DNA of 64,000 nt from Halioglobus sp. (GTDB lineage Bacteria > Pseudomonadota > Gammaproteobacteria > Pseudomonadales > Halieaceae): contig JBALVI010000010.1 in assembly GCA_036961205.1 (NCBI GenBank), positions 18,377-82,376 of the forward strand. The letters are read 5' to 3'. The position numbers and the translations under genes were made by a program. Under the pieces are notes generated by a model. It had not been told where the DNA came from, made no database searches, and saw nothing but the letters and a program-made list of their open reading frames with translations. Positions 4,154-20,586 of the stretch are shown in pieces; the stretch's first letter is position 1; the number at the start of each line of letters is the position of its first letter.

Positions 4154-4344
4154 TGACCAGCGCGATATCCAGAATCTATGAGTGCCTCTTCATTGGCAAT
4201 CGCAGCTTACGACTTCCGAAATTCCGCATTTTGCGAAACTGAAACTACCGCATTTTGCGGATTATTTTGCAAACTTGCCTTTCTGACTTTAAACAAAACT
4301 CCATAACCCATTGTTTTAATTGAGATTTAATTACTTTTACAAGT

Positions 4345-4360
4345 TGGCATCGGTATTGCT
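4345..4360 (+). promoter_or_regulatory. sigma-54 (-24/-12) promoter candidate P2, upstream of the export gene
   Basis: The sequence is TGGCATCGGTATTGCT, with GG at 4346-4347, N10, then GC at 4358-4359. It lies 40 nt upstream of the ATG at 4400. Confidence 0.7.
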
Positions 4361-4399
4361 AATACACAGTGTATTCATTAATTTTCCCGAGCCAGCGCT

Positions 4400-7360
4400 A
4401 TGAGCAACGTACACCGCCCAACCATGCGAGCCGCCCTTGAGAAACTCGTGGCAGCACGCCAGTTCAGCGCAAGCCTGATCTCCTTATGCATCGCAGCAGT
4501 TGTCCTGTCCACACCAGCCATTGCCGTCAACGACGCTTACTTGTCCTATGTAGAACCCCTGCAATCCATTCAGGCAAGAAGCTATGCACAGTCCGCACCC
4601 CGAGGACAGGACGAGACCGTGCTGGACCCGGCTGAGCCAATACAGATACCGGTAGGCATCATTGAGAGAGAAGAATCCCGACTCGAGCAGATAGCCGATG
4701 AGAAAAGTGGCCCCCTGAACCTTGAGGAAACTCAACAGGAACAAGTGCTGCATTCCGACCTCACGCAATTTGGCTACGACATATTTAACCAGGTGCAGAG
4801 CGCGCCTGCTTCGGCATCGGGCATTCCCGTGCCACCCAACTACCTGATAGGCCCCGCGGACAACATCATCGTGCAGCTTTTCGGCAAGCGCAATGTGGAA
4901 TACAAGCTAATCGTAACCCGCGACGGCAACATCCTCGTACCTGAGTACGGCCCTATTAAAGTTGCCGGCATGACCTTCGACGAGGCAGAGCAGCTTATCA
5001 CTGTAGGTTTCGAACGACGGGTAATCGGTGCCAAAGTGGTGGTAACCATGGGGCAACTGCGCACTGTCCAGATACGACTCGCCGGAGATGTTACTCAACC
5101 TGGGGTCTACACCGTAGGCGGCCTCACCACCATGATAGACGCGCTGCTAACCACCGGTGGCGTACGACCCACCGGAACACTACGCAACATAGAACTAATC
5201 AGGGGCGGTGAGCGTATCGCTAGCCTGGATCTCTACGGCCTGCTATTGAACGGGCGCATCAACCAGGACTCTTATCTGGACCACAACGACACTATCTTCG
5301 TTCCACCCATCGGCCCTATCGTCTACGTGGGAGGCGAGGTACAACGCCCCGCTATCTACGAGATAAAAGGCGAAAAGACGGTGGGGCAGATAATCGGGAT
5401 GGCCGGCGGACTACTGCCGACCGCGTCACTGCAGCACTCACATATTGAGCGAATACAGGCAGCAGGTATTCGCACCCTGGTCGACTTTTCTACCACCAGC
5501 ACCCGCAGCCCCGAACAAGCAATTCTGGGCACTGCAGTCCAAACCGGAGATCTCCTGCGAATTTTGCCTCTGGAAGATGAATTGGAAGACATAATTTTAC
5601 TGTCGGGTCACGTTAAACGTCCCGGCGGGTTCCAATTCAGACCGGGTATGCGCATCTCCGACATTGTGCCCAGCGCCGAAGTTCTCCTGCCGGGTGCAGA
5701 CGTGGATTTCGTGCTCGTCAAAAGAGAAAACCTCAAAACCCTGCGCACCGAAGTGGTCTATGCCAACCTCATGCAGGCACTGACGAGCACCGGTGGCCAA
5801 GGTGATATTGAGCTGCAGTCACACGACCAAATCATGGTATTTAATCTGGCCAAAGATCGCGAACAGGTAGTGAACGACATTGTCCGGGAACTGGATATAC
5901 AGGCTACTCATCATCGTCCTGCCAGGGTCATCGAAGTTCGGGGAGCACTGCGCTACACCGGTAGGTTACCGCTAGAAGAAGGAGCCCGTCTGCTTGATAT
6001 TATCGCCCTGTCCGGGGGACTGCAGCCCGGCACGGAAATGTACTATGGCGTCATCGCACGCACCCGTTATCCCGAGCGGGATATCGAGGCCGTCCCATTC
6101 AAAATAGCCGCCGCCCTCGTCGATCCAGCAGCACCGGCTAACCTCGCCATCGAGCCGGGAGATCGGCTGTATTTCTTCGACGATCGGAGTGACCGCTCAG
6201 AATTATTGAACAGTGAAATCACCCGCCTGCGCCAACAAGCCAGTTATGGCGCGGATGAGCGCCTGGTGGCAATACAAGGTGAGGTGCTGCATTCGGGCAC
6301 CTACCCACTGGGGCACGATATGCGCGCCAGTGACTTGCTCTGCGCAGCTCGTGGCCTGACCCGCAAGGCTTATGGTTTGACCGCCGAGCTCTCACGCATA
6401 CAACGCAATGCCAGCAGCAGCAATGAGGTAAAGCACACAACACTGGACAGCTTGAAACTCCTGTCGCTTTGCGAACTCACAAAGCAGGCCGCAAGCGGGA
6501 GAATAAAGGTCACTGACAACAACGAATTACTCGCACTCTATGTCGATGAACACACTAACCCTATCCTGGCGCCCATGGACCAGCTAACTTTTACAGAGAA
6601 ATCAGGTTGGGTAGAGCGTGCCTCAGTAACGCTGTTTGGCGAAGTGCAGCGCCCAGGCGTATATGCCATAAATCGAGGTGAAACACTGTGCGAAGTTTTA
6701 CAACGCGCTGACGGCCTGACGCCCGAAGCCTATATCTTTGGCTCCGAATTCACCCGCGAATCGGTACGCGCCATGCAACAGGAAACTCTGGATGAACTGC
6801 AGGACCAACTAGACGACCTGATGATCGAGTTGTCTCTTTCCCATTCGTTCAACAACCGGGATAAAACAAGCCATGACTGGGCCGGCAGACAGGATTACAT
6901 CAAGACGATTCGCCAACTGGAGAGCGCTGAAGCCAATGGCCGCATGGTCATAAACCTGGAACGCGTAGTGGAATGCCGCAAGGGTGACCAACTGGCACTG
7001 GAAGACGGCGACACCCTGACCATACCGCATACACCGGACTACGTGCAGGTGTCGGGGCAGGTTTATGTACCCACTTCCCACTTATATGACGAAGACCGAA
7101 AGATCGGTGACTACGTTGAACTGAGCGGTGGTCATACGGTATTGGGCCGACTCAAGGATACCTTTGTGATTCAGGCTAATGGGGAAGTGCTCAACTACAA
7201 GGGGAGCCGGACCTCATCGCGGATCGCGCGCAAAACCGTTATGCCAGGGGCCAGGATCTATGTGCCACTGGATGTCGATCGCATGAATGGTACCGAGAAA
7301 GCACAGAGCTGGATTTCATCACTGATGCAGTCCGCAATACTCGCCGGCCTCCTTCTCTAG
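4400..7360 (+). CDS. polysaccharide export protein, Wza/SypC-like, with about seven SLBB-type repeats
   Basis: 986 aa with an N-terminal hydrophobic anchor. A Poly_export-like block is present (YLIGPADNIIVQLFG...DGNILVPEYGPIKVAGMTFDEAE). It is followed by repeated G-x-V-x-x-P-G-x-Y units: GDVTQPGVYTV, GEVQRPAIYEI, GHVKRPGGFQF, GALRYTGRLPL, GEVLHSGTYPL, GEVQRPGVYAI and GQVYVPTSHLY. Confidence 0.9.
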   Translation: MSNVHRPTMRAALEKLVAARQFSASLISLCIAAVVLSTPAIAVNDAYLSYVEPLQSIQARSYAQSAPRGQDETVLDPAEPIQIPVGIIEREESRLEQIADEKSGPLNLEETQQEQVLHSDLTQFGYDIFNQVQSAPASASGIPVPPNYLIGPADNIIVQLFGKRNVEYKLIVTRDGNILVPEYGPIKVAGMTFDEAEQLITVGFERRVIGAKVVVTMGQLRTVQIRLAGDVTQPGVYTVGGLTTMIDALLTTGGVRPTGTLRNIELIRGGERIASLDLYGLLLNGRINQDSYLDHNDTIFVPPIGPIVYVGGEVQRPAIYEIKGEKTVGQIIGMAGGLLPTASLQHSHIERIQAAGIRTLVDFSTTSTRSPEQAILGTAVQTGDLLRILPLEDELEDIILLSGHVKRPGGFQFRPGMRISDIVPSAEVLLPGADVDFVLVKRENLKTLRTEVVYANLMQALTSTGGQGDIELQSHDQIMVFNLAKDREQVVNDIVRELDIQATHHRPARVIEVRGALRYTGRLPLEEGARLLDIIALSGGLQPGTEMYYGVIARTRYPERDIEAVPFKIAAALVDPAAPANLAIEPGDRLYFFDDRSDRSELLNSEITRLRQQASYGADERLVAIQGEVLHSGTYPLGHDMRASDLLCAARGLTRKAYGLTAELSRIQRNASSSNEVKHTTLDSLKLLSLCELTKQAASGRIKVTDNNELLALYVDEHTNPILAPMDQLTFTEKSGWVERASVTLFGEVQRPGVYAINRGETLCEVLQRADGLTPEAYIFGSEFTRESVRAMQQETLDELQDQLDDLMIELSLSHSFNNRDKTSHDWAGRQDYIKTIRQLESAEANGRMVINLERVVECRKGDQLALEDGDTLTIPHTPDYVQVSGQVYVPTSHLYDEDRKIGDYVELSGGHTVLGRLKDTFVIQANGEVLNYKGSRTSSRIARKTVMPGARIYVPLDVDRMNGTEKAQSWISSLMQSAILAGLLL

Positions 7361-7424
7361 ACCGAAAGATTAGACAATTAGCTGGCAAAACTTAGAGAGC
7401 GCAACATAGCAAACATACTTATTA

Positions 7425-9026
7425 ATGGAGATATCTGACATGGCCACCATCACCTACCCGTCAACCCGGGACTGCTTTAACTCGCTGGGCATTCCCGTCG
7501 ACAACCTGTCACTGCAAGACGCAGTAGACCGAATCGTCGCGATGACAAAAGACTATAATGGAAGGACTCAGCTGGTTTCGACGCTAAACGTCGACTTCTT
7601 GGTGAATTCGCTGGGGTATGCGTTTACCCGGCCGCGCCATCCCGAACTGCTGAACGTATTGCGCTCATCGGATATGGTGACAGCGGATGGCTTCCCTATT
7701 ATCTGGTTAAGCAAAATCGTGGGTAAGCCCCTCAAGCAACGCGTCGCTGGCTCAGACCTGACACCGGCGCTGGCTGCGCGCGCAGCAAAAGAAGGGCTAT
7801 CACTTTTTCTGCTGGGAGGCGCTGAGGGACTGGCGGCCGCAGCGGCCAATGCCTTGCAGTTAGCAAACCCCACGTTGAAAATCGCCGGCACATCGGCGCC
7901 GTTCGTCAATACCCAGGGCCCCGCCCTGAAGGACTTCGCCGCAGATGACCAGGCCCTGCTGAAAAATATTAACAGTTCTGATGCTGACATATTGCTGGTA
8001 GGACTGGGCAATCCCAAGCAAGAGCTGTGGTTCAATCGCAATCGACATAAACTGCAGGTGCCTGTCGCTATTGGCGTGGGTGGCACTTTCGAGTTCATTA
8101 CCGGCACAGTCAAACGCGCACCCCGCTGGATGCAGAAATCCAATCTCGAGTGGCTATTTCGGATTACCCAGGACCCCGAACGGTTGTGGCGACGCTACGC
8201 AACGGGGATGATAAAACTCGCAGTACTGACAGCCCCGCTTATTTACTATCGCGCTAAAGAAAGTGTGTTTTACAGGCCCGCACCCGCTACCGAAGGACCC
8301 AGCATTGTCTGGCAATCTGTCTGGTCCTCTCGTAACCAATCACTGGCTGCGGTGCGACTCCCGCGTCTGGTCAGTGCCCGCTATCTGGAAAAACTGGTGT
8401 CTTCGTTGCAGCAAGAGCATGCCAGCACGGCACTGCGACTACTGGACTTCAGCAACGTCAAACATATTGAGATCGCCGGGCATCAGGAATTTTTTCGCCT
8501 TGCGCAGCTACTGACAGACCCGCAGAGCGATATTTCAGTACTGGGACTACCAAAGGCGGTTAAACGTCTGCTTGGCGCGTGTCGCATCATGGATGTAGTT
8601 GGCGAAAACCATAATGGCAACACACTTAGCACCTTGTCATATTCACCGCTCGACAAAAACGTACAGGAGACGGGCTGTAAAAGTTATGTCATGAGCAATA
8701 CGGCGCTTATGTTTCTGTCCGGCCGGGTCAACGGCGAGGGATTGGCAGGGATCGGCTTCGTGGAGTGCCTACTGCACGCCGCTCGAGACCGCACCTGTAT
8801 TGTCGATTTACGCAATGTAACACTACTGGAAAGTACGGCGATCGCCGAACTTGAACCGCTCATTGCGTCACACCAGACAAGTGGCGACGGTGCAATCATG
8901 GTCAGTGGGGCAGATGCCAATGCCCGTCAAATGTTCCGCATGACCGGGCTGGGCGAAAGCGTCATTTTTATTGACGATATAACCTTGCTGGCCAGCATCG
9001 CAGCTGAGGGCCAACATTATAAGTAA
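7425..9026 (+). CDS. WecB/TagA/CpsF-family glycosyltransferase fused to two C-terminal STAS-like domains
   Basis: The N-terminal ~270 aa carry TLNVDFLVNS, DGFPIIWLSK, LFLLGG, GLGNPKQELWF and GVGGTFEFITGTVKRAPRWMQKSNLEWLFRI. The C-terminal half has two segments resembling anti-sigma antagonist (STAS) cores: LDFSNVKHIEIAGHQEFFRL and DLRNVTLLESTAIAEL. The start may instead be the ATG at 7440, which has GGAG 9 nt upstream. Confidence 0.82.
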   Translation: MEISDMATITYPSTRDCFNSLGIPVDNLSLQDAVDRIVAMTKDYNGRTQLVSTLNVDFLVNSLGYAFTRPRHPELLNVLRSSDMVTADGFPIIWLSKIVGKPLKQRVAGSDLTPALAARAAKEGLSLFLLGGAEGLAAAAANALQLANPTLKIAGTSAPFVNTQGPALKDFAADDQALLKNINSSDADILLVGLGNPKQELWFNRNRHKLQVPVAIGVGGTFEFITGTVKRAPRWMQKSNLEWLFRITQDPERLWRRYATGMIKLAVLTAPLIYYRAKESVFYRPAPATEGPSIVWQSVWSSRNQSLAAVRLPRLVSARYLEKLVSSLQQEHASTALRLLDFSNVKHIEIAGHQEFFRLAQLLTDPQSDISVLGLPKAVKRLLGACRIMDVVGENHNGNTLSTLSYSPLDKNVQETGCKSYVMSNTALMFLSGRVNGEGLAGIGFVECLLHAARDRTCIVDLRNVTLLESTAIAELEPLIASHQTSGDGAIMVSGADANARQMFRMTGLGESVIFIDDITLLASIAAEGQHYK

Positions 9027-9078
9027 CAACGATAGACGATCGTCGGGCAAGCCCAGGAGCCAGCTCCGGCATCATTTT

Positions 9079-9114
9079 TCGCATATTGCCTTGCGTATTG
9101 CCTCGCATATTGCA
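9079..9114. repeat. three tandem 12-bp units carrying GCA-TAT-TGC half-palindromes (candidate activator binding sites)
   Basis: The units TCGCATATTGCC, TTGCGTATTGCC and TCGCATATTGCA are head to tail. They lie about 220-250 bp upstream of the activator gene start at 9332. Confidence 0.5.
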
Positions 9115-9331
9115 TTATAGAGAAACGAGCGGTTGACAGGGCAATGCTGAACCTACGTAAGGCAAAGCTGAAATAGAGCCTCTATCGTTAAAATATACAT
9201 ATAAAACAGAAGCTTGCGCGATTTCTTCAAATTGCATTTCATTTTGAGAAAGATGGCATACAACTTGATACTAGATAGGCAGCCTTACCAAACCTGAGGC
9301 TCAACAACGGGCGCAGAGCGGAGATAACATT

Positions 9332-10753
9332 ATGGACACACAGGCAAAAGTACTCATGGTGGAAGACAGCATCTCGCTGTCGGCCATCTATGAAGCCTAT
9401 CTGGCAGACACCGACTACAAACTAGTATGCGTTGAGACGCTCGGCTCAGCGCACGCAACATTGGGGGCCTTCCAGCCGGATATTATTCTGCTGGACATCG
9501 AACTGCCAGACGGCAATGGCATGGACTTTCTGGACGAAGCAGCTGCCCTGGAACCCGCACCCAAGATCATTATCATGACCGCACACGGCAGCTCGGATAT
9601 GGCGGTGGAGGCAATCCAGAAAGGCGCATTCGACTTCCTGACCAAACCATTTGATGCAGCCCGCCTTAGAGTGACATTGGACAACGCCGCCGCCCAACTA
9701 ACACTGGGTAAAAGAGCCGACAAACTGGCACAGCTTGAGCGAGATCACTACTGCAATTTCATTGGTAAATCACTGGCAATGCAATCAGTGTACAAAACTA
9801 TCGATTCTCTGGCCGCCAGCGATGCCACCGGCTTTATCGTCGGGGAAAGCGGCACAGGGAAGGAGTTGGCCGCGGAAGCCATCCACCAGCAAAGCCCGCG
9901 CCACGACGCCGAATTCATAGCCATCAACTGCGGCGCCATACCCGGTGAACTGATGGAAAGCGAGCTGTTCGGACACGTCAAGGGTGCGTTTACTGGAGCC
10001 AGCACCAACCGCGAAGGCGCCGCCAGCGTTGCCAATGGCGGTACTCTATTCCTGGATGAGATTTGCGAGATGAGCCTGGATTTGCAGAAAAAACTGCTGC
10101 GCTTCATCCAAACTGGAACTTTCCGCAAGGTGGGCAGTAATACATTGGAACAGGTGGATGTGCGCTTTGTATGCGCGACCAATCGGGATCCGTTGGTAGA
10201 AGTTCGCGAGGGGCGCTTTCGTGAAGACCTTTTTTATCGACTGCATGTTATACCGGTACGGATGCCGCCATTGCGCGAACGAGAGGCCGATGTGCTAATG
10301 ATCGCCAATCATTTCCTGCAGCAGTTCAGCGACCGTGAAGGCAAGCAGTTTGACGGCTTTTCAGAGGATGCGGCCGAGGCCATTCGTCGCTACCCCTGGC
10401 CAGGTAATGTGCGCCAGCTGCAGAACGCAATGCAGCAAGTTGTGGTGCTCAACGAAGGAACAGCAGTGGATTATCACATGCTTCCCGATCTGGTTATTAG
10501 CGGCAACCTGGAGCATGAGACGCCATTTACGGCCACAGTTTCTTCGATTACCAGTCCGCGCGAACCGGGGGCGCAACAGGCGCATATGACACGCCGACAG
10601 CAGATCGAACCGTTATGGCTCACTGAAAAAAATACTGTGGAGGCGGCGATTGATTCTTGCGATGGCAACATTAACCAGGCTGCCGGACTGCTTGAAGTAG
10701 CACCGTCAACCCTTTACCGAAAATTGCAGTCCTGGAAGAAAATGCAGGCCTGA
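9332..10753 (+). CDS. sigma-54-dependent response regulator (REC-AAA+-HTH), LuxO/SypG-like
   Basis: It has a receiver (DIILLDIELPDGNG), Walker A (GESGTGKE), the GAFTGA loop (HVKGAFTGAS) and a Fis-type HTH (INQAAGLLEVAPSTLYRKL). Long collinear blocks match Vibrio LuxO as recalled from memory: LLRFIQTGTF.KVGS, VDVRFVCATNRDP, EGRFREDL.YRL and PLW.TEK. Confidence 0.9.
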   Translation: MDTQAKVLMVEDSISLSAIYEAYLADTDYKLVCVETLGSAHATLGAFQPDIILLDIELPDGNGMDFLDEAAALEPAPKIIIMTAHGSSDMAVEAIQKGAFDFLTKPFDAARLRVTLDNAAAQLTLGKRADKLAQLERDHYCNFIGKSLAMQSVYKTIDSLAASDATGFIVGESGTGKELAAEAIHQQSPRHDAEFIAINCGAIPGELMESELFGHVKGAFTGASTNREGAASVANGGTLFLDEICEMSLDLQKKLLRFIQTGTFRKVGSNTLEQVDVRFVCATNRDPLVEVREGRFREDLFYRLHVIPVRMPPLREREADVLMIANHFLQQFSDREGKQFDGFSEDAAEAIRRYPWPGNVRQLQNAMQQVVVLNEGTAVDYHMLPDLVISGNLEHETPFTATVSSITSPREPGAQQAHMTRRQQIEPLWLTEKNTVEAAIDSCDGNINQAAGLLEVAPSTLYRKLQSWKKMQA

Positions 10754-10778
10754 TCACAACCAGCAAGGAAATTTTGCC

Positions 10779-11330
10779 ATGTACGGCTTAATAAATAATT
10801 CTCTAAAAAGTATGATACTCGAACAGTTCGGCGAGGAGCAGTGGCAGAAGGTGCTGTCGAGTTCTGGTGTTTCAGAAGATTCTTTTCTCACCATGCGCAG
10901 CTATGACGACAGTATTACTTACTCGCTGGCGGGTGCCGCAGCGGAAGTACTGGGCGCGCCGGTAGAAGTCTGCCTTGAGATGTTCGGTGAATATTGGGTA
11001 TTGGAAACCGCGACCAAATCATACGGCATGCTGCTCAATGCTACGGGGCAGGACATGATCGAATTTCTGGGTAATATGAATGCCCTGCATGATCGTATTA
11101 CCAGTACCTTCCTCAACTACACTCCCCCTGAGTTCTTTATCGAAACCAAGGAAAGCCACCATCTTATTCACTATGTGAGTCAGCGGGAGGGCTTAACGCC
11201 TTTTGTTGTGGGGCTACTTAAGGGCCTCGCGAAACGGTTTAACAGCACGCTCACCATCATATCGCAGAGCGAAGTGGCAGTAGATCATGGCGCACACACC
11301 ATTTTTGAAGTAGAGATATTAGCTGCATGA
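10779..11330 (+). CDS. hnoX: H-NOX (heme nitric oxide/oxygen binding) sensor protein
   Basis: 183 aa with N-terminus MYGLINNSLKSMILEQFGEE. It has a candidate proximal His in NALHDRITS, a conserved Pro region (YTPPEF) and the YxSxR heme-propionate motif as YVSQR. Its stop overlaps the kinase start (ATGA). Confidence 0.88.
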   Translation: MYGLINNSLKSMILEQFGEEQWQKVLSSSGVSEDSFLTMRSYDDSITYSLAGAAAEVLGAPVEVCLEMFGEYWVLETATKSYGMLLNATGQDMIEFLGNMNALHDRITSTFLNYTPPEFFIETKESHHLIHYVSQREGLTPFVVGLLKGLAKRFNSTLTIISQSEVAVDHGAHTIFEVEILAA

Positions 11331-13402
11331 ACCGGCCGCTGAACATCTGCTGGAAGGACTTGCACAGCCTGTTCTCTGTTGTGATGTGTATCGACGAATC
11401 CATGAACCTAATCTACGCTAGCGAAACACTCAGTAAGTGCTTACCTGAAACAAAGCATAAACCCAAACTGCTAGAGATATTCGATACCTTGCGACCAGCT
11501 TCACTAGCGACCTTCAATGATGGAATCAACGCCCTGGACTCGCTTTGCCTGCTAACGGCAAAGAATGGAAAATTCGCTATCAGGGGACAGCTATTACGCA
11601 CGCAGTATCAGGAGCAGGATGTTTTATGCTTCTGCGGAGCACCGTGGCTGTTCTGGATCAACACAAATTGTCCTGAAATCAAATTGGGCCTAAGTGACTT
11701 TTCAGCCCAGGATGTCCAGCTGGACCAGTTGTTCTTCATGTCCACAGAAAGACAAATGGTTGATGACCTGGAACAACTGAACACAGATCTAAAGGCCGCC
11801 AAACAACAGCTGGAAGAGGCGCAGGAAGCGCAAAGACAGTTCTTTGCCCAAATGAGTCATGAAATTCGAACACCGTTAAACGGTGTGGTTAGCGCCCTGT
11901 CGCTGCTGGACCATCACCCAACGGGCCCCGAACAGTTCAACCTCATTCGACTTGCTCGAAGTTCATCCGAAAATCTGATGCAGGTGATCAATTATGTACT
12001 GAACGTATCTAAACTGGAACTCTCACCCCATCGAGACCAGGAACTATTCAGCTGGCCAGACTTGATCCGCTCCTCGATCGATATTGTCGTAGCCAAAGCG
12101 GAAGAGAAATCATTGCAGGTTGAGCTCGACATTTCACCCGACTTACCAAACACCTGTTATGGCAATCCCGCCCGTTTAAGGCAAACTTTGTTAAATCTCG
12201 CCATCAATGCAATCAAGTTTACTGACACAGGCACGATCACTATCCGCGCGCTGCCTGTGCACCATGCACAAGACCATTGCATTCTGCGGCTGGAGGTCAT
12301 CGATACAGGAATTGGTATCCTGGAAGACCACTTACCCCATATCTTCGACCCTTTCTGGAGCTTTCAGCCGGACCGTACTGCCGCGCAAACTGACCGCCGC
12401 GCATATGACGAGGGCACTGGGCTCGGCCTGGATATCGTGAGGCGTAATGTTCGAAGCATGGGCGGGGAAGTCATGGTGAAATCCACACCAGGTCAAGGGG
12501 CAAAGTTCTGGTTCGAACTGCCAGTAACACTGCCACACGAAACCCAGTCGCCATCCGAGAACGCACCGGCGCAACAGGAACCAGACACGGTGGAACTTAC
12601 AGGCAGGGTCATGTTGGTAGACGACAATGAGACCAATTTGTTACTGGGCTCCATGATCCTGGAATCAATGGGACTTGAAGTAACCAAGGTCGACAGTGGT
12701 GGCGCCGCTGTAGCCACAGCGAGGCAACAACAATTCGACCTCGTACTGATGGATATCAGCATGCCAGACATCGATGGACTGGACGCCACCCGGCAAATTC
12801 GCGCCTTCGCCGGCAGCGACCTGCTGCCGATTGTTGCCCTAACGGCCCGTACAGACGATAAAGAGAAAGCAGCCTGCCTTGACATCGGAATGGATGATTA
12901 CCTGACCAAACCCATTGTCCGGGAGGAACTCCATAAAGCGCTAGCTACCTGGCTCGCTAAAGATAAAAAAACGCATTCAAACGAAGCTGCCGAAAGCATG
13001 AAATACGAGAGCAACGCAGTGGATACTGAACTTGTGACCCAAAGTGTCATAGATGAATTGATTCGACAAATAGGGCGTGACAACTTACGGATTGTAATCA
13101 GCAAAGTGCGAACCGAAGCTACCCAGCGCTGGGATGAACTGGTAACTGCCGACAAACAGGGCGATAGGGACGCGACACAGCGCCATGTGCATAGCCTGGC
13201 AAGTATTTTCCGCAGCGTAGGCCTCATGCCAGTGGGCGATGCACTCGGGGCGATAGAAGCCAAATTGCGCGCCGGCAAAGAAGTACCGTCGGGGTGGCTG
13301 AATGAGCTCGAGAAGCTAAAAACCGATAGTATCATCGCTTTGGCAGAGCAAATGGAAGAACAGTCAAAACCCTCGCCGAAAATTCAAACCGACACTAAAT
13401 AA
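11327..13402 (+). CDS. H-NOX-associated hybrid sensor histidine kinase (HisKA-HATPase-REC-Hpt)
   Basis: It has an H-box (FFAQMSHEIRTPLNGV), N box (LLNLAINAIKFT), G boxes (DTGIGI, GTGLGLDIV) and a receiver (VMLVDDNETN...LVLMDISMPDIDG...DDYLTKP). The C-terminal Hpt-like motif is HVHSLASIFRSVG. It has no obvious TM segments, so it is probably cytoplasmic. Confidence 0.9.
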   Translation: MNRPLNICWKDLHSLFSVVMCIDESMNLIYASETLSKCLPETKHKPKLLEIFDTLRPASLATFNDGINALDSLCLLTAKNGKFAIRGQLLRTQYQEQDVLCFCGAPWLFWINTNCPEIKLGLSDFSAQDVQLDQLFFMSTERQMVDDLEQLNTDLKAAKQQLEEAQEAQRQFFAQMSHEIRTPLNGVVSALSLLDHHPTGPEQFNLIRLARSSSENLMQVINYVLNVSKLELSPHRDQELFSWPDLIRSSIDIVVAKAEEKSLQVELDISPDLPNTCYGNPARLRQTLLNLAINAIKFTDTGTITIRALPVHHAQDHCILRLEVIDTGIGILEDHLPHIFDPFWSFQPDRTAAQTDRRAYDEGTGLGLDIVRRNVRSMGGEVMVKSTPGQGAKFWFELPVTLPHETQSPSENAPAQQEPDTVELTGRVMLVDDNETNLLLGSMILESMGLEVTKVDSGGAAVATARQQQFDLVLMDISMPDIDGLDATRQIRAFAGSDLLPIVALTARTDDKEKAACLDIGMDDYLTKPIVREELHKALATWLAKDKKTHSNEAAESMKYESNAVDTELVTQSVIDELIRQIGRDNLRIVISKVRTEATQRWDELVTADKQGDRDATQRHVHSLASIFRSVGLMPVGDALGAIEAKLRAGKEVPSGWLNELEKLKTDSIIALAEQMEEQSKPSPKIQTDTK

Positions 13403-13418: not shown

Positions 13419-13691
13419 ATGCCTGTTATCGAAAAAGTGTCTGGTGCTGCCGCTAGAAGAATAAGAGCTGCGCTTTTATTCCTATGGCTACTGTTGCTGA
13501 TATGGCGCCTGTTCGATTTAGTCGAGGAGGCTATAACCGGAACCCTAAAGATGAGCATAGGAACATGGGGCATTACAGGTGTTGATGCGGGAGTAGTGCA
13601 ATTAGTAATTGTCGGCGCTTTAGGTTGTATTGTTTTCATCGCCTACAGTCATACGCGACAAGAGCTCTCTCCTGGATCAAAAGACCCATAA
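13419..13691 (+). CDS. small hypothetical membrane protein
   Basis: 90 aa with two hydrophobic segments (ALLFLWLLLLIW and VVQLVIVGALGCIVFIAY). It starts 17 nt after the kinase stop. No clear Shine-Dalgarno. Confidence 0.3.
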   Translation: MPVIEKVSGAAARRIRAALLFLWLLLLIWRLFDLVEEAITGTLKMSIGTWGITGVDAGVVQLVIVGALGCIVFIAYSHTRQELSPGSKDP

Positions 13692-13762: not shown

Positions 13763-13775
13763 TTGCATTCTGCAA
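13763..13775. promoter_or_regulatory. perfect TTGCA-N3-TGCAA palindrome (candidate LuxO-type enhancer site)
   Basis: TTGCATTCTGCAA, centred about 90 bp upstream of the -24 GG of promoter P4. Confidence 0.5.
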
Positions 13776-13857: not shown

Positions 13858-13873
13858 TGGCACGCAACTTGCT
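13858..13873 (+). promoter_or_regulatory. sigma-54 (-24/-12) promoter candidate P4
   Basis: The sequence is TGGCACGCAACTTGCT, with GG at 13859-13860, N10, then GC at 13871-13872. This is a full consensus match. It is co-oriented with the ORF at 13966. Confidence 0.72.
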
Positions 13874-13965: not shown

Positions 13966-14220
13966 ATGCAAACCCTAACGGCACAACACAGCACATCATC
14001 CTCAGCTCAGCCCTATCGACGCCGCGCCTGTACAGACTCAGGGTATGTGATGGATCCACTAAGTCTGGCCCACTTGAATTTCGGTTTATTCGGGACTCTT
14101 TGCAAGCTTGGCACCTCACAGGAACGAATTTGTTCCGCCTTGAATATCAGCTATCGAGACTTCGACTATCTTCAGGAACTTACCTCTACTCAGCGTCAGA
14201 AATTAAGCGGCGGGGGCTAA
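13966..14220 (+). CDS. hypothetical small protein (84 aa) ending in SGGG
   Basis: It has a strong SD (AAGGAG, 7 nt spacer, ATG) and lies downstream of sigma-54 promoter P4. No family recognised. Confidence 0.55.
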   Translation: MQTLTAQHSTSSSAQPYRRRACTDSGYVMDPLSLAHLNFGLFGTLCKLGTSQERICSALNISYRDFDYLQELTSTQRQKLSGGG

Positions 14221-14594: not shown

Positions 14595-15128
14595 CTATTC
14601 GTAGTTGTCCTTCAGCACAAAGAAGGCGGTAAAAAGCAAAGCCGCGCTAAAAGGAAGCGCAATCCAGATACCGTCAATTCCCAGCATGGTCTCGAAAGTC
14701 ACTTTGCCGAAATTGGCTGGCTTGATCAGTAAATTTTCCAGATAGGGGTATGCCAGAGAGAACAAAAAAGCTCCAGTAAATGCACCCGCCACAGTAAATA
14801 TAGCGTCTTTTTTACCTTCCGACGCGCCGACCACACAGGTGCCCGGACAATAGCCGGAGACGGCCCAACCGATGCCGAAGATAACGCCGCCGGCAATGAC
14901 ACCCCAGACGTAGGCGGGTTTGATGCTCATATTGGCCAAGCCACCCATATCGAGAAGGTAAATCCCCAATGTACCTACGCCGATGGCTGTCATCATTAGC
15001 TTTATAATCGCCATGTCTTTGAGCAGTAACGTGCCCAAAATCTTACGATAGCTGGAAGCGCCACCCAGGTATAGAATTGCGCCGAAGGCACAACCGATTG
15101 CAAATCCTATGAAAAGAGTCATTGTCAT
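14595..15128 (-). CDS. YeeE/YedE family sulfur-compound transporter half (C-terminal-type)
   Basis: 177 aa polytopic membrane protein with the SGYCPGTC motif. Overlaps its upstream partner by 4 nt. Confidence 0.82.
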   Translation of the reverse strand: MTMTLFIGFAIGCAFGAILYLGGASSYRKILGTLLLKDMAIIKLMMTAIGVGTLGIYLLDMGGLANMSIKPAYVWGVIAGGVIFGIGWAVSGYCPGTCVVGASEGKKDAIFTVAGAFTGAFLFSLAYPYLENLLIKPANFGKVTFETMLGIDGIWIALPFSAALLFTAFFVLKDNYE

Positions 15129-15661
15129 ACACCTCGCTTTCGGTAGAGGAATTTAGCCATAAGAATCGCCGCGCCAAACGTGGCAATGCCGAAGATAAAT
15201 GAACTCAGGGCCAATTGGGATATGCCGCTAATCATGTGCCCGCTGGTACATCCACCGGCGAGGCGAGCGCCAAATAAAAGTAGTACACCACCGAAAAACG
15301 CCGCTAGGTACCGCTTCGCGATCGAGGCGCCGAAGTTCTGTTTCCACATTGTCGGCATAGAACCCTTATCTGCTTCCGGCTGTCTGCCCCGAAAGAGCGT
15401 GGAGGTAACGGCGCCACCGACCAACATGCCGAGTACAAGCATCCAGCCATAGCCAATTCCCCAATCGGTTTTTTCACCATATTTTGACAAGTAGGTGTTT
15501 GCTTCCGCAAACTCAGGGGCGAGTTGGTGTACGATTGCCGCGTCTGATACTACAAATTGCGTCGAGACACCCAGTGGTTTGACCAGGGCTGTCGCGAGAA
15601 CAAGCAGCAGGCCAAGGGAAATACCTGCCGCCTTCCACGAGATGATGGGGTTATCGCTCAT
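15125..15661 (-). CDS. YeeE/YedE family sulfur-compound transporter half (N-terminal-type)
   Basis: 178 aa polytopic membrane protein with the GGCTSGHMISG motif characteristic of the Sulf_transp (YeeE/YedE) family. Confidence 0.82.
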   Translation of the reverse strand: MSDNPIISWKAAGISLGLLLVLATALVKPLGVSTQFVVSDAAIVHQLAPEFAEANTYLSKYGEKTDWGIGYGWMLVLGMLVGGAVTSTLFRGRQPEADKGSMPTMWKQNFGASIAKRYLAAFFGGVLLLFGARLAGGCTSGHMISGISQLALSSFIFGIATFGAAILMAKFLYRKRGV

Positions 15662-15692
15662 CTTATTCTCCGTCTGATTTGGGTTTGCATTC

Positions 15693-15716
15693 GAATATTA
15701 GAACTTTATAATATTC
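15693..15716. promoter_or_regulatory. perfect 8-bp inverted repeat (candidate ArsR-type operator) in the divergent yeeE / MBL promoter region
   Basis: GAATATTA-GAACTTTA-TAATATTC. It shares GAATATTAG / TATAATAT elements with the sites at 16735-16746 and 17107-17128. Confidence 0.45.
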
Positions 15717-15746
15717 TTTTAAACAAATATAACGCGGTAGCAAGCG

Positions 15747-16718
15747 ATGAACAAGCGGATTTTTGGCAACATACTCTTATTAGCTTTCATTTTGGCGGCT
15801 GTATTGCCCGCCCTATCGACGCGAGCCCAGAGTGCATCTGCATTTCAACTCGAAGTAACCCGGGTGTCGGACTCCGTATATGTAGCAGTGGGTGTAACCA
15901 AGCCTCCCGGCTATGAGAATGGCGGGCACAACAATAACCTGTCGTTCGTCATCACTACCGGTGGTGTATTGGTGGTCAATGGGGGCGACAACTACATGCT
16001 GGCAGAGACGCTACACCGGCAGATTAAACAGCGCACCGCGCAACCGGTGAAATGGGTGGTCAATGAAAATGGGCAGGGTCACGCCTTCCTCGGAAACAGC
16101 TATTGGGCCACACAAAAGGGCGTAGAGATTATTGCGCATGAGGATGCCATAGCCGAAATGGAGGTCCACGGAGAGGCCGCGCTGCGCCGCATGCAGGAGC
16201 TGCTGCGGGAAAAGGGTGATAAGACGACCATAAGCATACCCACGCAAAGCTTTGGTGCAGCAACAGACGACCGCTTTCTTATAGAGCTTGGTGGTACCCG
16301 AATAGAACTGCTGCGCTTTGGTGCAGCGCATTCACCCGGGGATATTTCAGTGTGGTTGCCACAGGACAATATCCTGATTGCCGGCGATATTGCCTTTCAC
16401 CAGCGCCTGCTGGGCATCTTCCCCGACACGGATGTGGCCGGCTGGATAGAATCTTTTCAGCGAATGACGGCGATGCAGCCCAAAATTATCATCCCAGGAC
16501 ACGGGGCACCCACCGATGTTGATACTCTGAACCGGGAAACCTTGGGATACCTGCTGTATCTGCGGACCGAGATCGAGAGAATACTCGATGAGGATGGTGA
16601 CCTTTCCGACGCATACTCGATCGATCAATCGGCCTACGAATATCTGGATACCTTTGAGGAGCTGGCCGTTAAAAATGCAGGCCGACTGTACCAGACCATG
16701 GAAATGGAGTACTTCTGA
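15747..16718 (+). CDS. periplasmic MBL-fold metallo-hydrolase-like protein (SoxH-like by context)
   Basis: It has a signal peptide (MNKRIFGNILLLAFILAAVLPALSTRAQS) and MBL-like blocks (LVVNGGDN, AAHSPGD, IIIPGHGAP). The canonical HxHxDH position reads NENGQGH. Confidence 0.75.
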   Translation: MNKRIFGNILLLAFILAAVLPALSTRAQSASAFQLEVTRVSDSVYVAVGVTKPPGYENGGHNNNLSFVITTGGVLVVNGGDNYMLAETLHRQIKQRTAQPVKWVVNENGQGHAFLGNSYWATQKGVEIIAHEDAIAEMEVHGEAALRRMQELLREKGDKTTISIPTQSFGAATDDRFLIELGGTRIELLRFGAAHSPGDISVWLPQDNILIAGDIAFHQRLLGIFPDTDVAGWIESFQRMTAMQPKIIIPGHGAPTDVDTLNRETLGYLLYLRTEIERILDEDGDLSDAYSIDQSAYEYLDTFEELAVKNAGRLYQTMEMEYF

Positions 16719-16773
16719 GCGCTGCCTTTTTTTATTTGAATATTAGTATCCATTGTAATCGCACATTAATTTT

Positions 16774-17076
16774 TTACTCATCCTCAGCGCAGTACAGCTC
16801 ATAAAGCAGTGAGACAATCTGGGTAACTTTATCGCCCGCGATGGAGTAATAGATGGTCTGGGCATCACGGCGGCTTTCGACAACGCCCATATGACGCATG
16901 CGTGCGAGGTGCTGGGACAGCGCAGACTGCTTGATTCCGACGCTTTCCGATAACTCTCCTACTGACTGCTCGCCCAATTTTAACTGGCACAACACCATCA
17001 GTCGGTCCGCGTGACCGAGTAATTTGAGCATCTCGCTTGCAGCCCGAGCTGAATTCTGCATTTTTTCCAAATCCAT
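16774..17076 (-). CDS. ArsR/SmtB-family transcriptional regulator, two-Cys (BigR/SqrR/SoxR-like)
   Basis: 100 aa with a wHTH (SVGELSESVGIKQSALSQHLARMRHMGVV). There is a Cys in LMVLCQL and a second near the C-terminus (LYCAEDE). It is divergent from soxC. Confidence 0.88.
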   Translation of the reverse strand: MDLEKMQNSARAASEMLKLLGHADRLMVLCQLKLGEQSVGELSESVGIKQSALSQHLARMRHMGVVESRRDAQTIYYSIAGDKVTQIVSLLYELYCAEDE

Positions 17077-17106
17077 AAACTGATCTCTAAAAATTGGTAG
17101 TTGCTT

Positions 17107-17128
17107 TATATTTGAATTTTATAATATA
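17107..17128. promoter_or_regulatory. AT-rich inverted repeat (candidate operator) between the arsR-like gene and soxC
   Basis: TATATT-TGAATTTTAT-AATATA. It contains a TATAAT hexamer at 17120-17125. Confidence 0.4.
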
Positions 17129-17174
17129 CTAATAAGCTGTGATTGAGAAGCCTTGAAAACAATAAGGATTTTGC

Positions 17175-18488
17175 ATGTCAAAACAACAGGAACTCGATGC
17201 CCTGGTGCAATCCATTGCGGTATCGGGCGAGCAGCTACCGGGCCTGGAACGAAGAAAATTCCTCAAGCAGGGAATTATCATGCTTGGAGCAGCGGGCGTT
17301 GCCAGCGCGACGGATGTTACCTCTGCAGGCTCTGGAACGCCACCCGATGTACCCCCCTGGACAAAGAGCCTGGGACCCGGCGTTGTCAGCAACCCCTACG
17401 GGGCCCCTTCCCCATTTGAGGCTCACGTTAAACGCCGAACGGTTGAATGGCTGACGGCGGATAAGATTGCCTCCATCAGCTTTACCCCCCTCGCAGATTT
17501 GAAGGGTATTATTACCCCCAGTGGCGTGGTCTTCGAGCGCTATCACGCCGGTGTTCCGGCCGTTGATCCCGGCATCCACAGGCTGATGATTCACGGCATG
17601 GTAGACCGCCCGATTATCCTTTCGATGGATGATCTGATGCGCTTTCCGTCCGTCAGTATGATCAGGTTTCTGGAATGTCCTGCCAATGGAGGAATGGAAT
17701 GGCGAGGCGCACAAATGGACAGACTGCAATTCAGCCATGGCATGCTCGCATGCTGTGAATGGACAGGCGTGCTGCTGTCTACCCTGCTACAGGAGGTTGG
17801 TGTACAAAAAGGTGCGGGGTGGGTGCTGGCAGAGGGGGCCGACGGTTCCCACATGAGTCGCAGTATCCCGATGGATAAGGCGATGGACGATGCGCTTATC
17901 GTCTACGCGCAGAATGGCGAAGCCCTGCGACCTGAACAAGGTTACCCCGTGCGGTTGATCAACCCTGGTTGGGAGGGCAATACCTGTGTCAAGTGGCTGC
18001 GGCGTCTCGAAATCGGTGATAAACCCTGGCATCACCGCGAGGAAACATCGAAGTACACTGACTTAATGCCCGATGGCAAAGCTCGCGAGTTCACCTACGT
18101 ACAAGAATGTAACTCCGTTGTCACCAGCCCCTGCCCGGAAAACCCATTGAGTAAGCCCGGCAAAGTCTGGGTGGAAGGACTTGCCTGGTCCGGTCGAGGA
18201 AAGATAAAACACGTCGATGTATCATTTGACGGCGGCGTTACCTGGCGGCCTACGCGCTTTACCAGCTCGGTATTGCCGCGCGCTCTGACACGGTTTGGGG
18301 TCGAGTGGGACTGGAATGGCAACACGGCGCTGGTGCAAAGTAGAGCCGTTGACGAGACCGGCTACGTACAGCCTACCTATGGTCAATTGCGTGATGTGCG
18401 GGGGTCTTCGTCGGTCTACCACAAGAATGCGATCCATACCTGGAGAGTCAACAGCAATGGGAGTGTGAGCAATGTGCAGATTTCCTAG
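17175..18488 (+). CDS. soxC: sulfane dehydrogenase molybdopterin subunit SoxC
   Basis: 437 aa with a Tat-like signal (ERRKFLKQG). It is sulfite-oxidase-family-like and lies directly upstream of, and overlapping, a diheme cytochrome (soxD) within a sox cluster. Confidence 0.88.
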   Translation: MSKQQELDALVQSIAVSGEQLPGLERRKFLKQGIIMLGAAGVASATDVTSAGSGTPPDVPPWTKSLGPGVVSNPYGAPSPFEAHVKRRTVEWLTADKIASISFTPLADLKGIITPSGVVFERYHAGVPAVDPGIHRLMIHGMVDRPIILSMDDLMRFPSVSMIRFLECPANGGMEWRGAQMDRLQFSHGMLACCEWTGVLLSTLLQEVGVQKGAGWVLAEGADGSHMSRSIPMDKAMDDALIVYAQNGEALRPEQGYPVRLINPGWEGNTCVKWLRRLEIGDKPWHHREETSKYTDLMPDGKAREFTYVQECNSVVTSPCPENPLSKPGKVWVEGLAWSGRGKIKHVDVSFDGGVTWRPTRFTSSVLPRALTRFGVEWDWNGNTALVQSRAVDETGYVQPTYGQLRDVRGSSSVYHKNAIHTWRVNSNGSVSNVQIS

Positions 18489-19386: not shown

Positions 19387-19766
19387 AAAATCGAACCGGA
19401 CAGCCCAGAGTTATGATGGTGATCCTCCACGGCCTAGGTGTGACCGCCATGACTTTGTTGGGCGGGCTCCCCTCCCTCGCACATGCGAGCCCCGAATCAA
19501 TCGCGGCTGGCGAGCAGGTTGCTTCCGACCGCAAGCTGGGAAATTGTTACTCATGCCATATGGTCGTTGGTGCCGAACTTGCTGGCAATGCCGGCCCCCC
19601 TCTAATACAGATGAAGAGCCGCTATCCGGACCGCGCAGTACTGCGGGCACAAATTGCCGACCCCCGCAGCCGTAACCCCAATACCATTATGCCGCCCTAT
19701 GGGGCGCACAACATTTTAACCGAACAGCAACTCGACCAACTGGTCGATTATGTGCTGTCACTTTAA
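19383..19766 (+). CDS. soxX: monoheme cytochrome c SoxX
   Basis: 127 aa with a single CYSCH and an IMPPYG motif. The GTG start overlaps the soxD stop, and the gene precedes soxYZA. Confidence 0.82.
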   Translation: MKNRTGQPRVMMVILHGLGVTAMTLLGGLPSLAHASPESIAAGEQVASDRKLGNCYSCHMVVGAELAGNAGPPLIQMKSRYPDRAVLRAQIADPRSRNPNTIMPPYGAHNILTEQQLDQLVDYVLSL

Positions 19767-19794
19767 ACCTGACCGAGACCACGAGGAGTATTCA

Positions 19795-20250: not shown

Positions 20251-20274
20251 CATAAACATATTAGGAGATTAGTC

Positions 20275-20586
20275 ATGGCAAAAGCTGTAAAGATACGCGC
20301 CAAATTGAAAGGGGACGTGGCGGCCGTCAAGTCACTCATGCCCCATCCGATGGAAACCGGTACACGTAAGGACGAGGCCGGCAATGTCATTCCGGCACAC
20401 TTCATTAAAACGGTGACATGCGAGCACAACGGAGAAGTAATCCTGGTGGCAGACTGGGGAGCTTCGGTGTCAAAAAACCCGTATTTCTCCTTCGAAGTTA
20501 AGGCTGCCAAGAGTGGTGATTCGATTAAAGTTGGTTGGGTGGATAACCTCGGTGAGACATCCAGTGGCGAAACCACTCTGAAATAG
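20275..20586 (+). CDS. soxZ: sulfur compound chelating protein SoxZ
   Basis: 103 aa with the HPMETG motif, directly after soxY. Confidence 0.9.
   Translation: MAKAVKIRAKLKGDVAAVKSLMPHPMETGTRKDEAGNVIPAHFIKTVTCEHNGEVILVADWGASVSKNPYFSFEVKAAKSGDSIKVGWVDNLGETSSGETTLK

Follow-up and report, generated by a model that had tools for sequence, protein, structure and literature searches.

The module described here lies in a 64,000-nt window of contig JBALVI010000010.1 from Halioglobus sp., the window being the whole stretch of DNA that was analyzed and the frame for the coordinates below; loci of relatives are labeled L001, L002, and so on. Three genes on the plus strand form its core. The first (9332-10753) encodes a 473-aa LuxO-like sigma-54 enhancer-binding response regulator with receiver (REC), AAA+, and helix-turn-helix (HTH_8) domains, a predicted phospho-acceptor Asp55 in LLDIELPD, and GAFTGA at residue 218. 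The second (10779-11330) encodes a predicted H-NOX (heme nitric oxide/oxygen-binding) sensor of 183 aa that is of the Nostoc/soluble guanylate cyclase (sGC) beta1 type, with proximal His104 and Y132-S134-R136. The third (11327-13402) encodes a soluble hybrid histidine kinase of 691 aa that runs from an HNOBA-like N-terminus through HisKA (His178), HATPase_c, and REC (Asp476) domains to a histidine phosphotransfer (Hpt) domain (His622). A conserved membrane ORF of about 90 aa (orf90; 13419-13691, plus strand) follows directly 3' of the kinase gene and is probably the fourth gene of the operon. Spacing is tight throughout: 25 bp separate the activator gene from hnoX, the hnoX stop overlaps the kinase start as ATGA, and 16 bp precede orf90. 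An initial annotation had proposed a nitric oxide (NO)-sensing phosphorelay contiguous with a LuxO-type activator at this site, and its three ORFs, every motif that it quoted, and the ATGA overlap were all recovered from the ORF list and by motif search. A Pfam scan likewise returned every family expected from that annotation (HNOB, HisKA, HATPase_c, Response_reg, Hpt, and Sigma54_activat). Taken as part of the joint model developed below, activator, hnoX, kinase, and orf90 likely form a four-gene operon that encodes a complete predicted His-Asp-His-Asp phosphorelay.

Components of the module

The architecture of the activator, initially read as REC-AAA+-HTH with GAFTGA, is borne out by Pfam matches to Response_reg (8.6e-24), Sigma54_activat (1.7e-66), AAA_lid_14, and HTH_8. 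Three libraries place the protein closest to LuxO. LuxO (NF041946) was the best of 102 matching NCBIfam families, with 619.2 bits over positions 1-462 of 463, and NtrC came next with 403 bits. A PDB search gave 444 bits for Photobacterium LuxO (5EP0) versus 312 bits for NtrC1. When 1.84 billion representatives were searched exhaustively, the top matches included a Luminiphilus paralog (55% identity, 515 bits) and, in third place, an Enterovibrio protein named LuxO by NCBI (54% identity, 509 bits). The named proteins in the matching clusters were LuxO and members from Luminiphilus, Sinimarinibacterium, and Aestuariispira, with no SypG among them. Pairwise alignment with the Enterovibrio LuxO gave 53% identity overall and 38 identical residues of 48 (~79%) in the C-terminal HTH region, with a recognition helix that reads PSTLYRKLQSW in the activator and PSTIYRKLQSW in LuxO. 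Orthologs are also labeled "LuxO" in JGI/KEGG annotation. In a bootstrapped neighbor-joining tree of 118 sequences, the Cellvibrionales orthologs form a clade of their own (100% bootstrap) that falls within a poorly supported radiation of LuxO-like activators and lies far from GlnG (37% identity) and ZraR (41%). An NtrC or ZraR identity was rejected on these identities and on the NtrC score. The initial assignment of the activator to the LuxO type therefore stands in part: the protein resembles LuxO and not NtrC. Its score below the 800-bit equivalog cutoff of NF041946 and its place in a separate Cellvibrionales clade mean, however, that it is no ortholog of LuxO.

The sensor matches PF07700 (HNOB) over residues 2-160 (Pfam, E = 2e-45, 155.1 bits versus a cutoff of 25.5). 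It carries NALHDRI at residue 101 and YVSQR at residue 132, and its His104 and Y132/S134/R136 align residue by residue with His105 and Y134/S136/R138 of the Nostoc protein, so that both the candidate proximal His and the YxSxR motif noted in the initial annotation have counterparts in a known H-NOX. By sequence comparison, the best structure matches are Nostoc Alr2278 (138 bits) and the H-NOX domain of sGC beta1 (98 bits). A Phe occupies the position aligned to Nostoc Met144, the site of the O2-stabilizing Tyr in Thermoanaerobacter H-NOX. This Phe suggests a sensor of NO or CO that excludes O2. Together, the sensor and the HNOBA-like N-terminus of the kinase look like an sGC-type H-NOX/HNOBA unit that is split over two polypeptides.

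The kinase matched HNOBA (partial, 35.8 bits), HisKA, HATPase_c, Response_reg, and Hpt (PF01627, 27.2 bits versus a gathering cutoff of 24.6) in Pfam. Its motifs are SHEIRTPLNG at residue 177, N290/N294, DTGIGI at 326, GTGLGL at 363, and HVHSLASIFRSVG at 620. Alignment of the orthologs showed that His178, N290/N294, DTGIGI, GTGLGL, Asp476, and Lys528 are invariant, and His622 with the surrounding H-x-L-x-S-x-x-R-S-x-G-L is invariant both in six orthologs (44-74% identity) and in a 33-sequence alignment. With His178, Asp476, and His622 all invariant, the kinase therefore accounts for every station but the last in a His-Asp-His-Asp relay. The AlphaFold model of the last 127 residues is a helical bundle (predicted local distance difference test score, pLDDT, 92.8), for which the top PDB match was HptB of Pseudomonas aeruginosa (7c1i; template modeling score 0.78/0.86, rmsd 1.9 Å). 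The other matches were almost all Hpt proteins, including the HPt domain of a Shewanella hybrid kinase (3myf), that of ArcB (1a0b), and plant and fungal HPt proteins. The Pfam score, the invariant His622, and the confident fold agree, and the claim that the kinase ends in an Hpt is supported. The kinase had also been described as cytoplasmic, and this holds because no hydrophobic or transmembrane segment is present (hydrophobicity maximum KD19 = 1.19). Kinases of this family with an Hpt are found throughout Halieaceae, including Congregibacter litoralis. A scan of contigs with the kinase as query returned only three true orthologs, the other 77 loci holding generic hybrid kinases, because the back-translated peptides were too query-specific.

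The adjacency of sensor, kinase, and activator, on which the initial annotation had relied, extends well beyond this genome, with synteny in all eight other loci examined. The order activator-hnoX-kinase is kept in L001, L002, L003, L081, L082, L083, and L084 and partly in L089, and hnoX and the kinase gene are neighbors in 7/7 loci that cover both. These syntenic loci come from Halieaceae, from Oceanicoccus, and from a genome of the Pseudomaricurvus type. Each of the three proteins has homologs in Halieaceae (Halioglobus, Haliea, Congregibacter, and IMCC isolates), Oceanicoccus, and Pseudomaricurvus. Identities in L001-L003 are 77-82% for the activator, ~70% for H-NOX, and 46-56% for the kinase, which diverges fastest. 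The small membrane ORF recurs after the kinase gene as well, in L001 (7373-7654), L002 (6532-6726), L084 (14111-14356), and L089 (2044-2313). It is kept in at least five loci and matched no Pfam family; its product contains a hydrophobic stretch, and WRL(F/L)DL(V/L)EE is a conserved motif.

Promoters, boxes, and the genes around the module

Strict matches to the sigma-54 -24/-12 promoter occur only three times in the 64 kb, all of them intergenic and on the plus strand: at 397-412 (TGGCACGGTCCCTGCT), at 4345-4360 (TGGCATCGGTATTGCT), and at 13858-13873 (TGGCACGCAACTTGCT), the last being 3' of the kinase gene and conserved in L001, L002, and L082. Each of the three has a LuxO-type upstream activating sequence (UAS) box 95-142 bp upstream, where Markov simulations gave an expectation of 0.01 such pairs, so that the boxed promoters listed in the initial annotation were all found. 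The boxes, likewise on the plus strand, are TTGCATTTTGCGT at 255-267 (11/13, 142 bp upstream of promoter 397, with a counterpart in L082, L083, and L084), the tandem pair CCGCATTTTGCGA at 4224 and CCGCATTTTGCGG at 4248 (4224-4260, paired at the same relative site in L082, L083, and L084), and TTGCATTCTGCAA at 13763-13775 (12/13, a perfect 13/13 at the equivalent site in L001 and L002). All 5 exact GCAWWWTGC cores in the 64 kb fall within the three intergenic regions of the locus.

The same geometry is seen across species. Boxes of 10-13/13 sit 65-167 bp upstream of 17 sigma-54 promoters in six loci, typically at ~95-165 bp and at nearly every exopolysaccharide (EPS) operon start. In L082, L083, and L084 the arrangement recurs at the starts of the operons for the family 1 glycosyltransferase (GT1), the exporter, the orf84-type protein, DUF6492, and Wzz, and in L001 and L002 it is found 3' of the kinase gene; several of the relatives' boxes are perfect 13/13 matches. 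The consensus over the locus is T(T/C)GCA-WWW-TGC(A/G)A, and the published LuxO UAS is TTGCAWWWTGCAA (PMC10162802). With an HTH that is identical to that of LuxO at 38 of 48 positions, the activator and the boxes match what LuxO-type recognition of TTGCAWWWTGCAA predicts. The promoter-linked boxes fit this LuxO palindrome and not the SypG enhancer (TTCTCANNNTGMDWN). The only perfect SypG-enhancer match in the 64 kb (TTCTCAAAATGAAA, 9237-9250, minus strand) is not at a sigma-54 promoter. It lies ~85-95 bp upstream of the activator gene, where it overlaps a proximal LuxO-like half-box and a sigma-70-like -35 element.

No sigma-54 promoter was found upstream of the activator gene itself. Boxes are nevertheless present there on the plus strand as a cluster (TCGCATATTGCCT, TTGCGTATTGCC, and TCGCATATTGCAT; 9079-9115) at about -250 to -229 that is likely autoregulatory, and as a proximal variant (TTTCATTTTGAGA; 9222-9272, 10/13 counted by eye) at about -95 that overlaps a sigma-70-like promoter, TTGAGA-17-GATACT. 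Boxes at about -225 (-200 to -237) precede the activator gene in all eight loci compared, and proximal boxes at about -100 (-85 to -110) are present in L001, L002, L003, L081, L083, and L084. The activator therefore probably regulates its own gene through these sites, an arrangement that resembles the LuxO autoregulation reportedly seen in V. harveyi.

The genes served by the first two promoters are EPS genes, all on the plus strand. Operon 1 (599-4153) encodes GT1 (599-1846), a polytopic membrane protein of 458 aa (1836-3212), and a sulfotransferase (3209-4153), in an order shared with L082, L083, and L084. Operon 2 (4400-9026), whose first gene starts 55 bp after promoter 4345 (-52 to -55 in L082, L083, and L084), encodes a 986-aa Poly_export/SLBB outer-membrane exporter (4400-7360) and a WecG-family glycosyltransferase with a C-terminal STAS domain (7425-9026). 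Its orthologs in the same three loci are 54-75% identical. The sulfotransferase is conserved in L082, L083, and L084 inside the sigma-54-linked operon, and the EPS product is likely a sulfated exopolysaccharide. Fusion of a WecG/TagA/CpsF-family glycosyltransferase to an anti-sigma-antagonist-like STAS domain is also kept in relatives. In the syp locus of Vibrio fischeri, by comparison, STAS occurs as a protein of its own, SypA, a regulator that is controlled by phosphorylation. The window locus has no SypE-like kinase/phosphatase. Start codons lie 42-202 bp 3' of the sigma-54 promoters, and the transcripts are protein-coding operons.

The order of the full locus can be read from L082 (IMCC14734), L083 (Pseudomaricurvus-type), and L084 (an Oceanicoccus metagenome-assembled genome, MAG). 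It starts with a divergently transcribed Bac_transf gene, followed by GT1, the membrane protein of ~450 aa, and the sulfotransferase, then by the exporter of ~985 aa and WecG-STAS, then by activator, hnoX, and kinase, and finally by DUF6492, a family 2 glycosyltransferase (GT2), Wzz, an acyltransferase, and rhamnose synthesis genes. In these three relatives EPS genes thus flank the trio on both sides. In the window the EPS genes (599-9026) lie upstream only, and the trio borders them on their downstream side. The description of the module as embedded in an EPS locus is literally true of the relatives, but in the window it holds for one side. The downstream half is absent from both the window and its close relative L089, where unrelated genes follow orf84.

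The third promoter, at 13858, precedes orf84 (13966-14220, plus strand), which encodes a small, conserved cytoplasmic protein and has a strong Shine-Dalgarno sequence. A Qrr or other small RNA (sRNA) behind this promoter was considered and rejected, as no Rfam match was found and the conserved ORF follows. Homologs of orf84 are present in L082 (14252-14491), L084 (18547-18792), L001 (about 10131-10385), and L089 (2635-2889), always in a transcription unit with a sigma-54 promoter and a LuxO box. The family is restricted to Halieaceae, shares the invariant core YVMDP..LA.L.F.LF.TL.KLGTS..RICSA, and matched no Pfam family; a Halioglobus sp. MAG encodes a protein (P0418) with 100% identity to the window protein. 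Exact look-ups of P0418 and of the window H-NOX in the contig index returned no match. Its AlphaFold model is of moderate confidence (pLDDT 68.6) with a core of four short helices, and the Foldseek matches were all HTH domains, none of them significant (best E = 0.6). As a hint only, orf84 possibly encodes a small HTH protein that acts as a downstream regulator. In L001 the promoter 3' of the kinase gene is followed by genes for two secreted proteins (CarboxypepD_reg-like and DUF4842/LruC-like; 7849-10093) and then by the orf84 homolog, and L084 likewise has a gene for a secreted protein (18272-18505) ahead of its homolog. Such genes are missing from the window.

Directly after the module, where relatives carry the second EPS half, the window has a sulfur-oxidation cluster (14595-21434) with a split Sulf_transp pair, a metallo-beta-lactamase-fold protein, a SorA-like molybdopterin oxidoreductase with a dihaem cytochrome c, SoxY, and SoxA. 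Farther on, a 1052-aa protein (27127-30285) combines Cache/SBP_bac_3 sensor domains with HD/HD_5 domains of the HD-GYP type. It is possibly a phosphodiesterase for cyclic di-GMP (c-di-GMP) and is unlinked to the H-NOX locus. Genes for alpha subunits of Rieske/ring-hydroxylating oxygenases, SnoaL-like proteins, an amidohydrolase, an SDR protein, and a glyoxalase (35466-46306 and 63441-63971) make up what looks like an aromatic or hydrocarbon degradation island.

A predicted route from nitric oxide to exopolysaccharide and its rivals

We consider it likely that H-NOX gates the kinase, that the fused Hpt phosphorylates the activator, and that the activator drives the sigma-54 EPS promoters directly. 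In the proposed sequence of events, NO would bind to the heme of H-NOX, which would dock on the HNOBA-like N-terminal region of the kinase and thereby alter autophosphorylation at His178. The phosphate would pass within the kinase from His178 to Asp476 and on to His622 of the fused Hpt, and from there to the receiver of the adjacent activator, where Asp55 is the acceptor suggested by position. The phosphorylated activator would oligomerize on the T(T/C)GCA-WWW-TGC(A/G)A boxes ~95-165 bp upstream of the sigma-54 promoters and remodel the sigma-54 holoenzyme, which would switch on EPS operons 1 and 2 and orf84, probably along with regulation of its own gene. If NO-bound H-NOX inhibits the kinase, expression of the EPS genes would fall. 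LuxO-family activators are active when phosphorylated. NO-bound H-NOX inhibits its kinase in all characterized pairs (PMC8738867, PMC12369376), so that less EPS expression is predicted in the presence of NO, in line with the effect of NO on syp in V. fischeri. The domains, catalytic residues, Hpt fold, synteny, and promoter-box geometry on which this route is built were all established by sequence analysis and comparison.

Several points weigh against this route or limit its reach. Heme and NO binding, the contact between H-NOX and kinase, the path of phosphotransfer, recognition of the boxes by the activator, and the direction of the response to NO are inferred. The structures of Shewanella and Vibrio H-NOX proteins score only ~29 bits against the window sensor, and because this sensor is of the Nostoc/sGC type, applying the rule that NO inhibits the kinase is an extrapolation. 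The score of 619 bits for the activator falls short of the 800-bit LuxO cutoff, and the deep nodes that lead from its clade toward the LuxO and Aeromonas clades have <35% bootstrap. Phylogeny thus separates the activator from GlnG and ZraR without supporting a sister relationship to LuxO, so that a LuxO-like DNA specificity rests on the HTH similarity and on the boxes themselves. Enrichment of boxes by count was rejected, since the total of GCAWWWTGC in the window equals chance, and the argument rests on placement, promoter pairing, and cross-species conservation. WecG-STAS, GT2, and some other gene starts have neither promoter nor box of their own, so that control would be per operon and not per gene. 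The missing downstream EPS half makes the regulon in the window smaller than in relatives. Lastly, hybrid kinases of HK-REC architecture that lack an Hpt adjoin the trio in L084 (15061-16932, CHASE8-HAMP), L001 (10445-12880, minus strand), and L081 (14077-15780, minus strand). No extra hybrid kinase is adjacent to the trio in the window. The term "self-contained" in the initial annotation may overstate the case in some genomes because of the Hpt-less kinases beside the trio in several relatives, which hint that H-NOX is one of several inputs and that these kinases may feed the one Hpt. Vibrio offers parallels, with LuxN, LuxQ, and CqsS funneling into LuxU and with RscS and HahK funneling into SypF.

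These same kinases bear on an alternative in which H-NOX/kinase and activator are neighbors and not cognate partners, the Hpt signaling mainly to another regulator (e.g., an enzyme of c-di-GMP metabolism, for which Shewanella, V. cholerae, and Pseudoalteromonas provide examples) and other kinases to the activator. Apart from the extra hybrid kinases beside the trio in L084, L001, and L081, this view can draw on the large HD-GYP protein at 27127-30285 and on the fact that the biochemically characterized H-NOX kinases outside quorum sensing all signal to c-di-GMP enzymes (PMC8738867). We nevertheless regard it as unlikely. The activator-hnoX-kinase order is strict in all eight related loci, which come from at least two families, and the genes there overlap or are separated by minimal gaps; moreover, no gene for a GGDEF, EAL, or HD-GYP protein lies within any syntenic locus. 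Distant LuxO-like activators (in L015 and in Azospirillum) also directly precede hybrid kinases with a fused Hpt, which argues that the activator and the HK-REC-Hpt kinase are a co-inherited cognate module. A pathway built as we propose could also report another ligand or state, such as O2, CO, heme redox, or thiols, so that the circuit would convey oxygen or redox conditions to EPS. The closest proteins, Nostoc H-NOX and sGC beta1, bind CO as well, sox genes adjoin the module in this aerobic marine heterotroph, and V. cholerae H-NOX is reported to sense redox. Neither the proximal His nor the YxSxR motif is disrupted, however, and the Phe aligned to Nostoc Met144 is typical of NO-selective sensors that exclude O2, which makes sensing of something other than NO quite improbable here.

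Still less probable in our judgment is a displaced quorum-sensing pathway of the Vibrio LuxO type, with Qrr-like sRNAs or a master regulator elsewhere as the main targets and with EPS boxes that are secondary or nonfunctional. The "LuxO" labels given to the orthologs by JGI/KEGG, the match of the boxes to the LuxO UAS, and the likeness of the activator-gene box to the LuxO autoregulation reported for V. harveyi all lean toward it, and orf84 could be the downstream regulator. Several results count against it. An Rfam scan of the window and of four syntenic loci (L001, L082, L083, and L084) detected neither Qrr nor any other Rfam family, which agrees with the initial view that no Qrr intermediate is involved. 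(An RsmY match inside the kinase gene was dismissed as chance, with E = 0.15 and 21 bits versus a gathering score of 57.) The locus also lacks a separate luxU, because the Hpt is fused to the kinase. The boxed sigma-54 promoters precede protein-coding EPS operons with start codons 42-202 bp downstream. The activator does not reach the LuxO equivalog cutoff, and the tree, whose deep nodes have <35% bootstrap, places it outside the LuxO group of Vibrionaceae and Aeromonas. The route from H-NOX through the fused Hpt and the adjacent activator to the EPS promoters therefore remains our preferred reading.

Origin, significance, and relation to known systems

Activators and kinases of this kind are also found together in distant genomes. 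In L015 (2475-5901), from an Azotimanducaceae MAG, a LuxO-like activator (48% identity) is followed by a REC-HK-REC-Hpt kinase, and in L085 (8980-14213), from plasmid p5 of Azospirillum lipoferum, an activator of 49% identity is followed by a GAF-PAS-HK-REC-Hpt kinase. Neither locus has an H-NOX. Because these distant activators adjoin HK-REC-Hpt kinases without H-NOX, a cassette with exchangeable sensors looks recurrent. We offer only tentatively, and hold it doubtful as a whole, the broader picture that this would imply: an older, widespread cassette of "activator + HK-REC-Hpt" in which the sensor can be swapped (Cellvibrionales using H-NOX, Azospirillum GAF/PAS, and Azotimanducaceae REC), from which LuxO-Qrr and SypG-syp would be derived. 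Recognition of TTGCA-N3-TGCAA would then not be an invention of Vibrionaceae quorum sensing, OM60/NOR5 bacteria would have a direct, sRNA-free switch from NO to sulfated EPS, and orf84 would be a new effector.

Most of what is understood about H-NOX signaling comes from c-di-GMP enzymes or from the multi-input LuxU/LuxO and SypF/SypG networks of Vibrio, where cross-talk makes the NO branch hard to isolate. A circuit that is spread over several loci in Vibrio is here compacted into one operon beside EPS genes, and sensor, kinase, Hpt, activator, and boxed promoters within about 14 kb amount to a minimal end-to-end system for testing control of a polysaccharide by NO. The arrangement is kept in cultured relatives such as Congregibacter and Pseudomaricurvus. 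The predicted LuxO-like recognition at protein-coding EPS promoters outside Vibrionaceae bears on the evolution of the LuxO/SypG family and of quorum sensing. The module also points to a possible role of NO, from sources such as phytoplankton or denitrifiers, in regulating aggregation and sulfated EPS in Halieaceae, an abundant clade of coastal bacterioplankton. In the literature searched, no description was found of a wiring of H-NOX, fused-Hpt kinase, LuxO-like activator, and EPS genes outside Vibrionaceae, which is what the initial annotation had supposed. The only Cellvibrionales H-NOX studied is the pair from Saccharophagus degradans, for which the output is unknown (PMC8738867).

Nostoc Alr2278 and the H-NOX-HNOBA part of sGC beta1 supply the best sensor match, with proximal His and YxSxR aligned exactly, and the partner here resembles the sGC beta1 type in having an HNOBA-type region and then a helix into the catalytic module. 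Unlike in those proteins, two polypeptides share the H-NOX and HNOBA parts here, and a histidine kinase relay takes the place of a cyclase as the output. The HnoX-HnoK-HnoB/C/D systems of Shewanella oneidensis and V. cholerae, the H-NOX-HahK-Hpt-diguanylate cyclase pathway of Pseudoalteromonas atlantica, and the dual H-NOX/HK set of S. degradans share an hnoX gene in an operon with a soluble kinase. Inhibition of autophosphorylation by NO is expected in all of these, and S. degradans is also a member of Cellvibrionales (PMC8738867). The Shewanella, V. cholerae, and Pseudoalteromonas systems differ in that their output is c-di-GMP metabolism with no sigma-54 activator, and their H-NOX proteins score ~29 bits against the window sensor, versus 138 for Nostoc.

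Closer in logic are the quorum-sensing branches of V. harveyi and V. parahaemolyticus, in which H-NOX/HqsK signals to LuxU and on to LuxO (PMC8738867) and Qrr. There, as predicted here, an H-NOX-gated hybrid kinase acts through an Hpt on a LuxO-family REC-AAA+-HTH protein; the HTH of the activator is ~79% identical to that of LuxO, and boxes that match TTGCAWWWTGCAA stand upstream of sigma-54 promoters. The Halioglobus module is unlike these branches in having no separate LuxU, no Qrr detected, promoters that precede protein-coding EPS operons, an activator of 619 bits against the 800-bit cutoff in a separate clade, and no autoinducer receptors encoded nearby.

The nearest parallel is V. fischeri, where HnoX inhibits HahK, which signals through the Hpt of SypF or through LuxU to SypG and syp (PMC12369376). 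Both systems have hnoX in an operon with a soluble hybrid kinase and a His-Asp-His-Asp relay, and both have a LuxO-family sigma-54 activator within an EPS locus that contains several sigma-54 promoters, each with an upstream enhancer (PMC12369376, PMC10162802). This SypG-like trait, an activator gene inside a polysaccharide locus with a sigma-54 promoter and enhancer per operon, is seen in full in the relatives, the EPS genes of the window being upstream only. The two loci also share a large Poly_export/SLBB exporter, a STAS domain, a Bac_transf priming transferase, and several glycosyltransferases. The differences are equally specific. The Hpt is fused to the H-NOX-associated kinase here, whereas HahK has none and borrows that of SypF or LuxU. 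Sensor, kinase, and activator share one operon here and are at separate loci in V. fischeri. Equivalents of SypE and SypF are absent, and STAS is part of the WecG glycosyltransferase. The promoter boxes fit the palindrome of LuxO, not the enhancer of SypG (TTCTCANNNTGMDWN), the sensor is a Nostoc/sGC-type H-NOX, the kinase has an HNOBA-like N-terminus, and the host belongs to Cellvibrionales and not to Vibrionaceae. As read from the sequence, the logic of the Halioglobus module is that of V. fischeri syp and of HqsK-LuxO and is not categorically new. What sets the module apart is the fused Hpt, the single operon beside or, in relatives, inside its predicted target locus, LuxO-type boxes at EPS promoters with no Qrr found, an sGC/Nostoc-type sensor with an HNOBA-bearing kinase, and a Cellvibrionales host.

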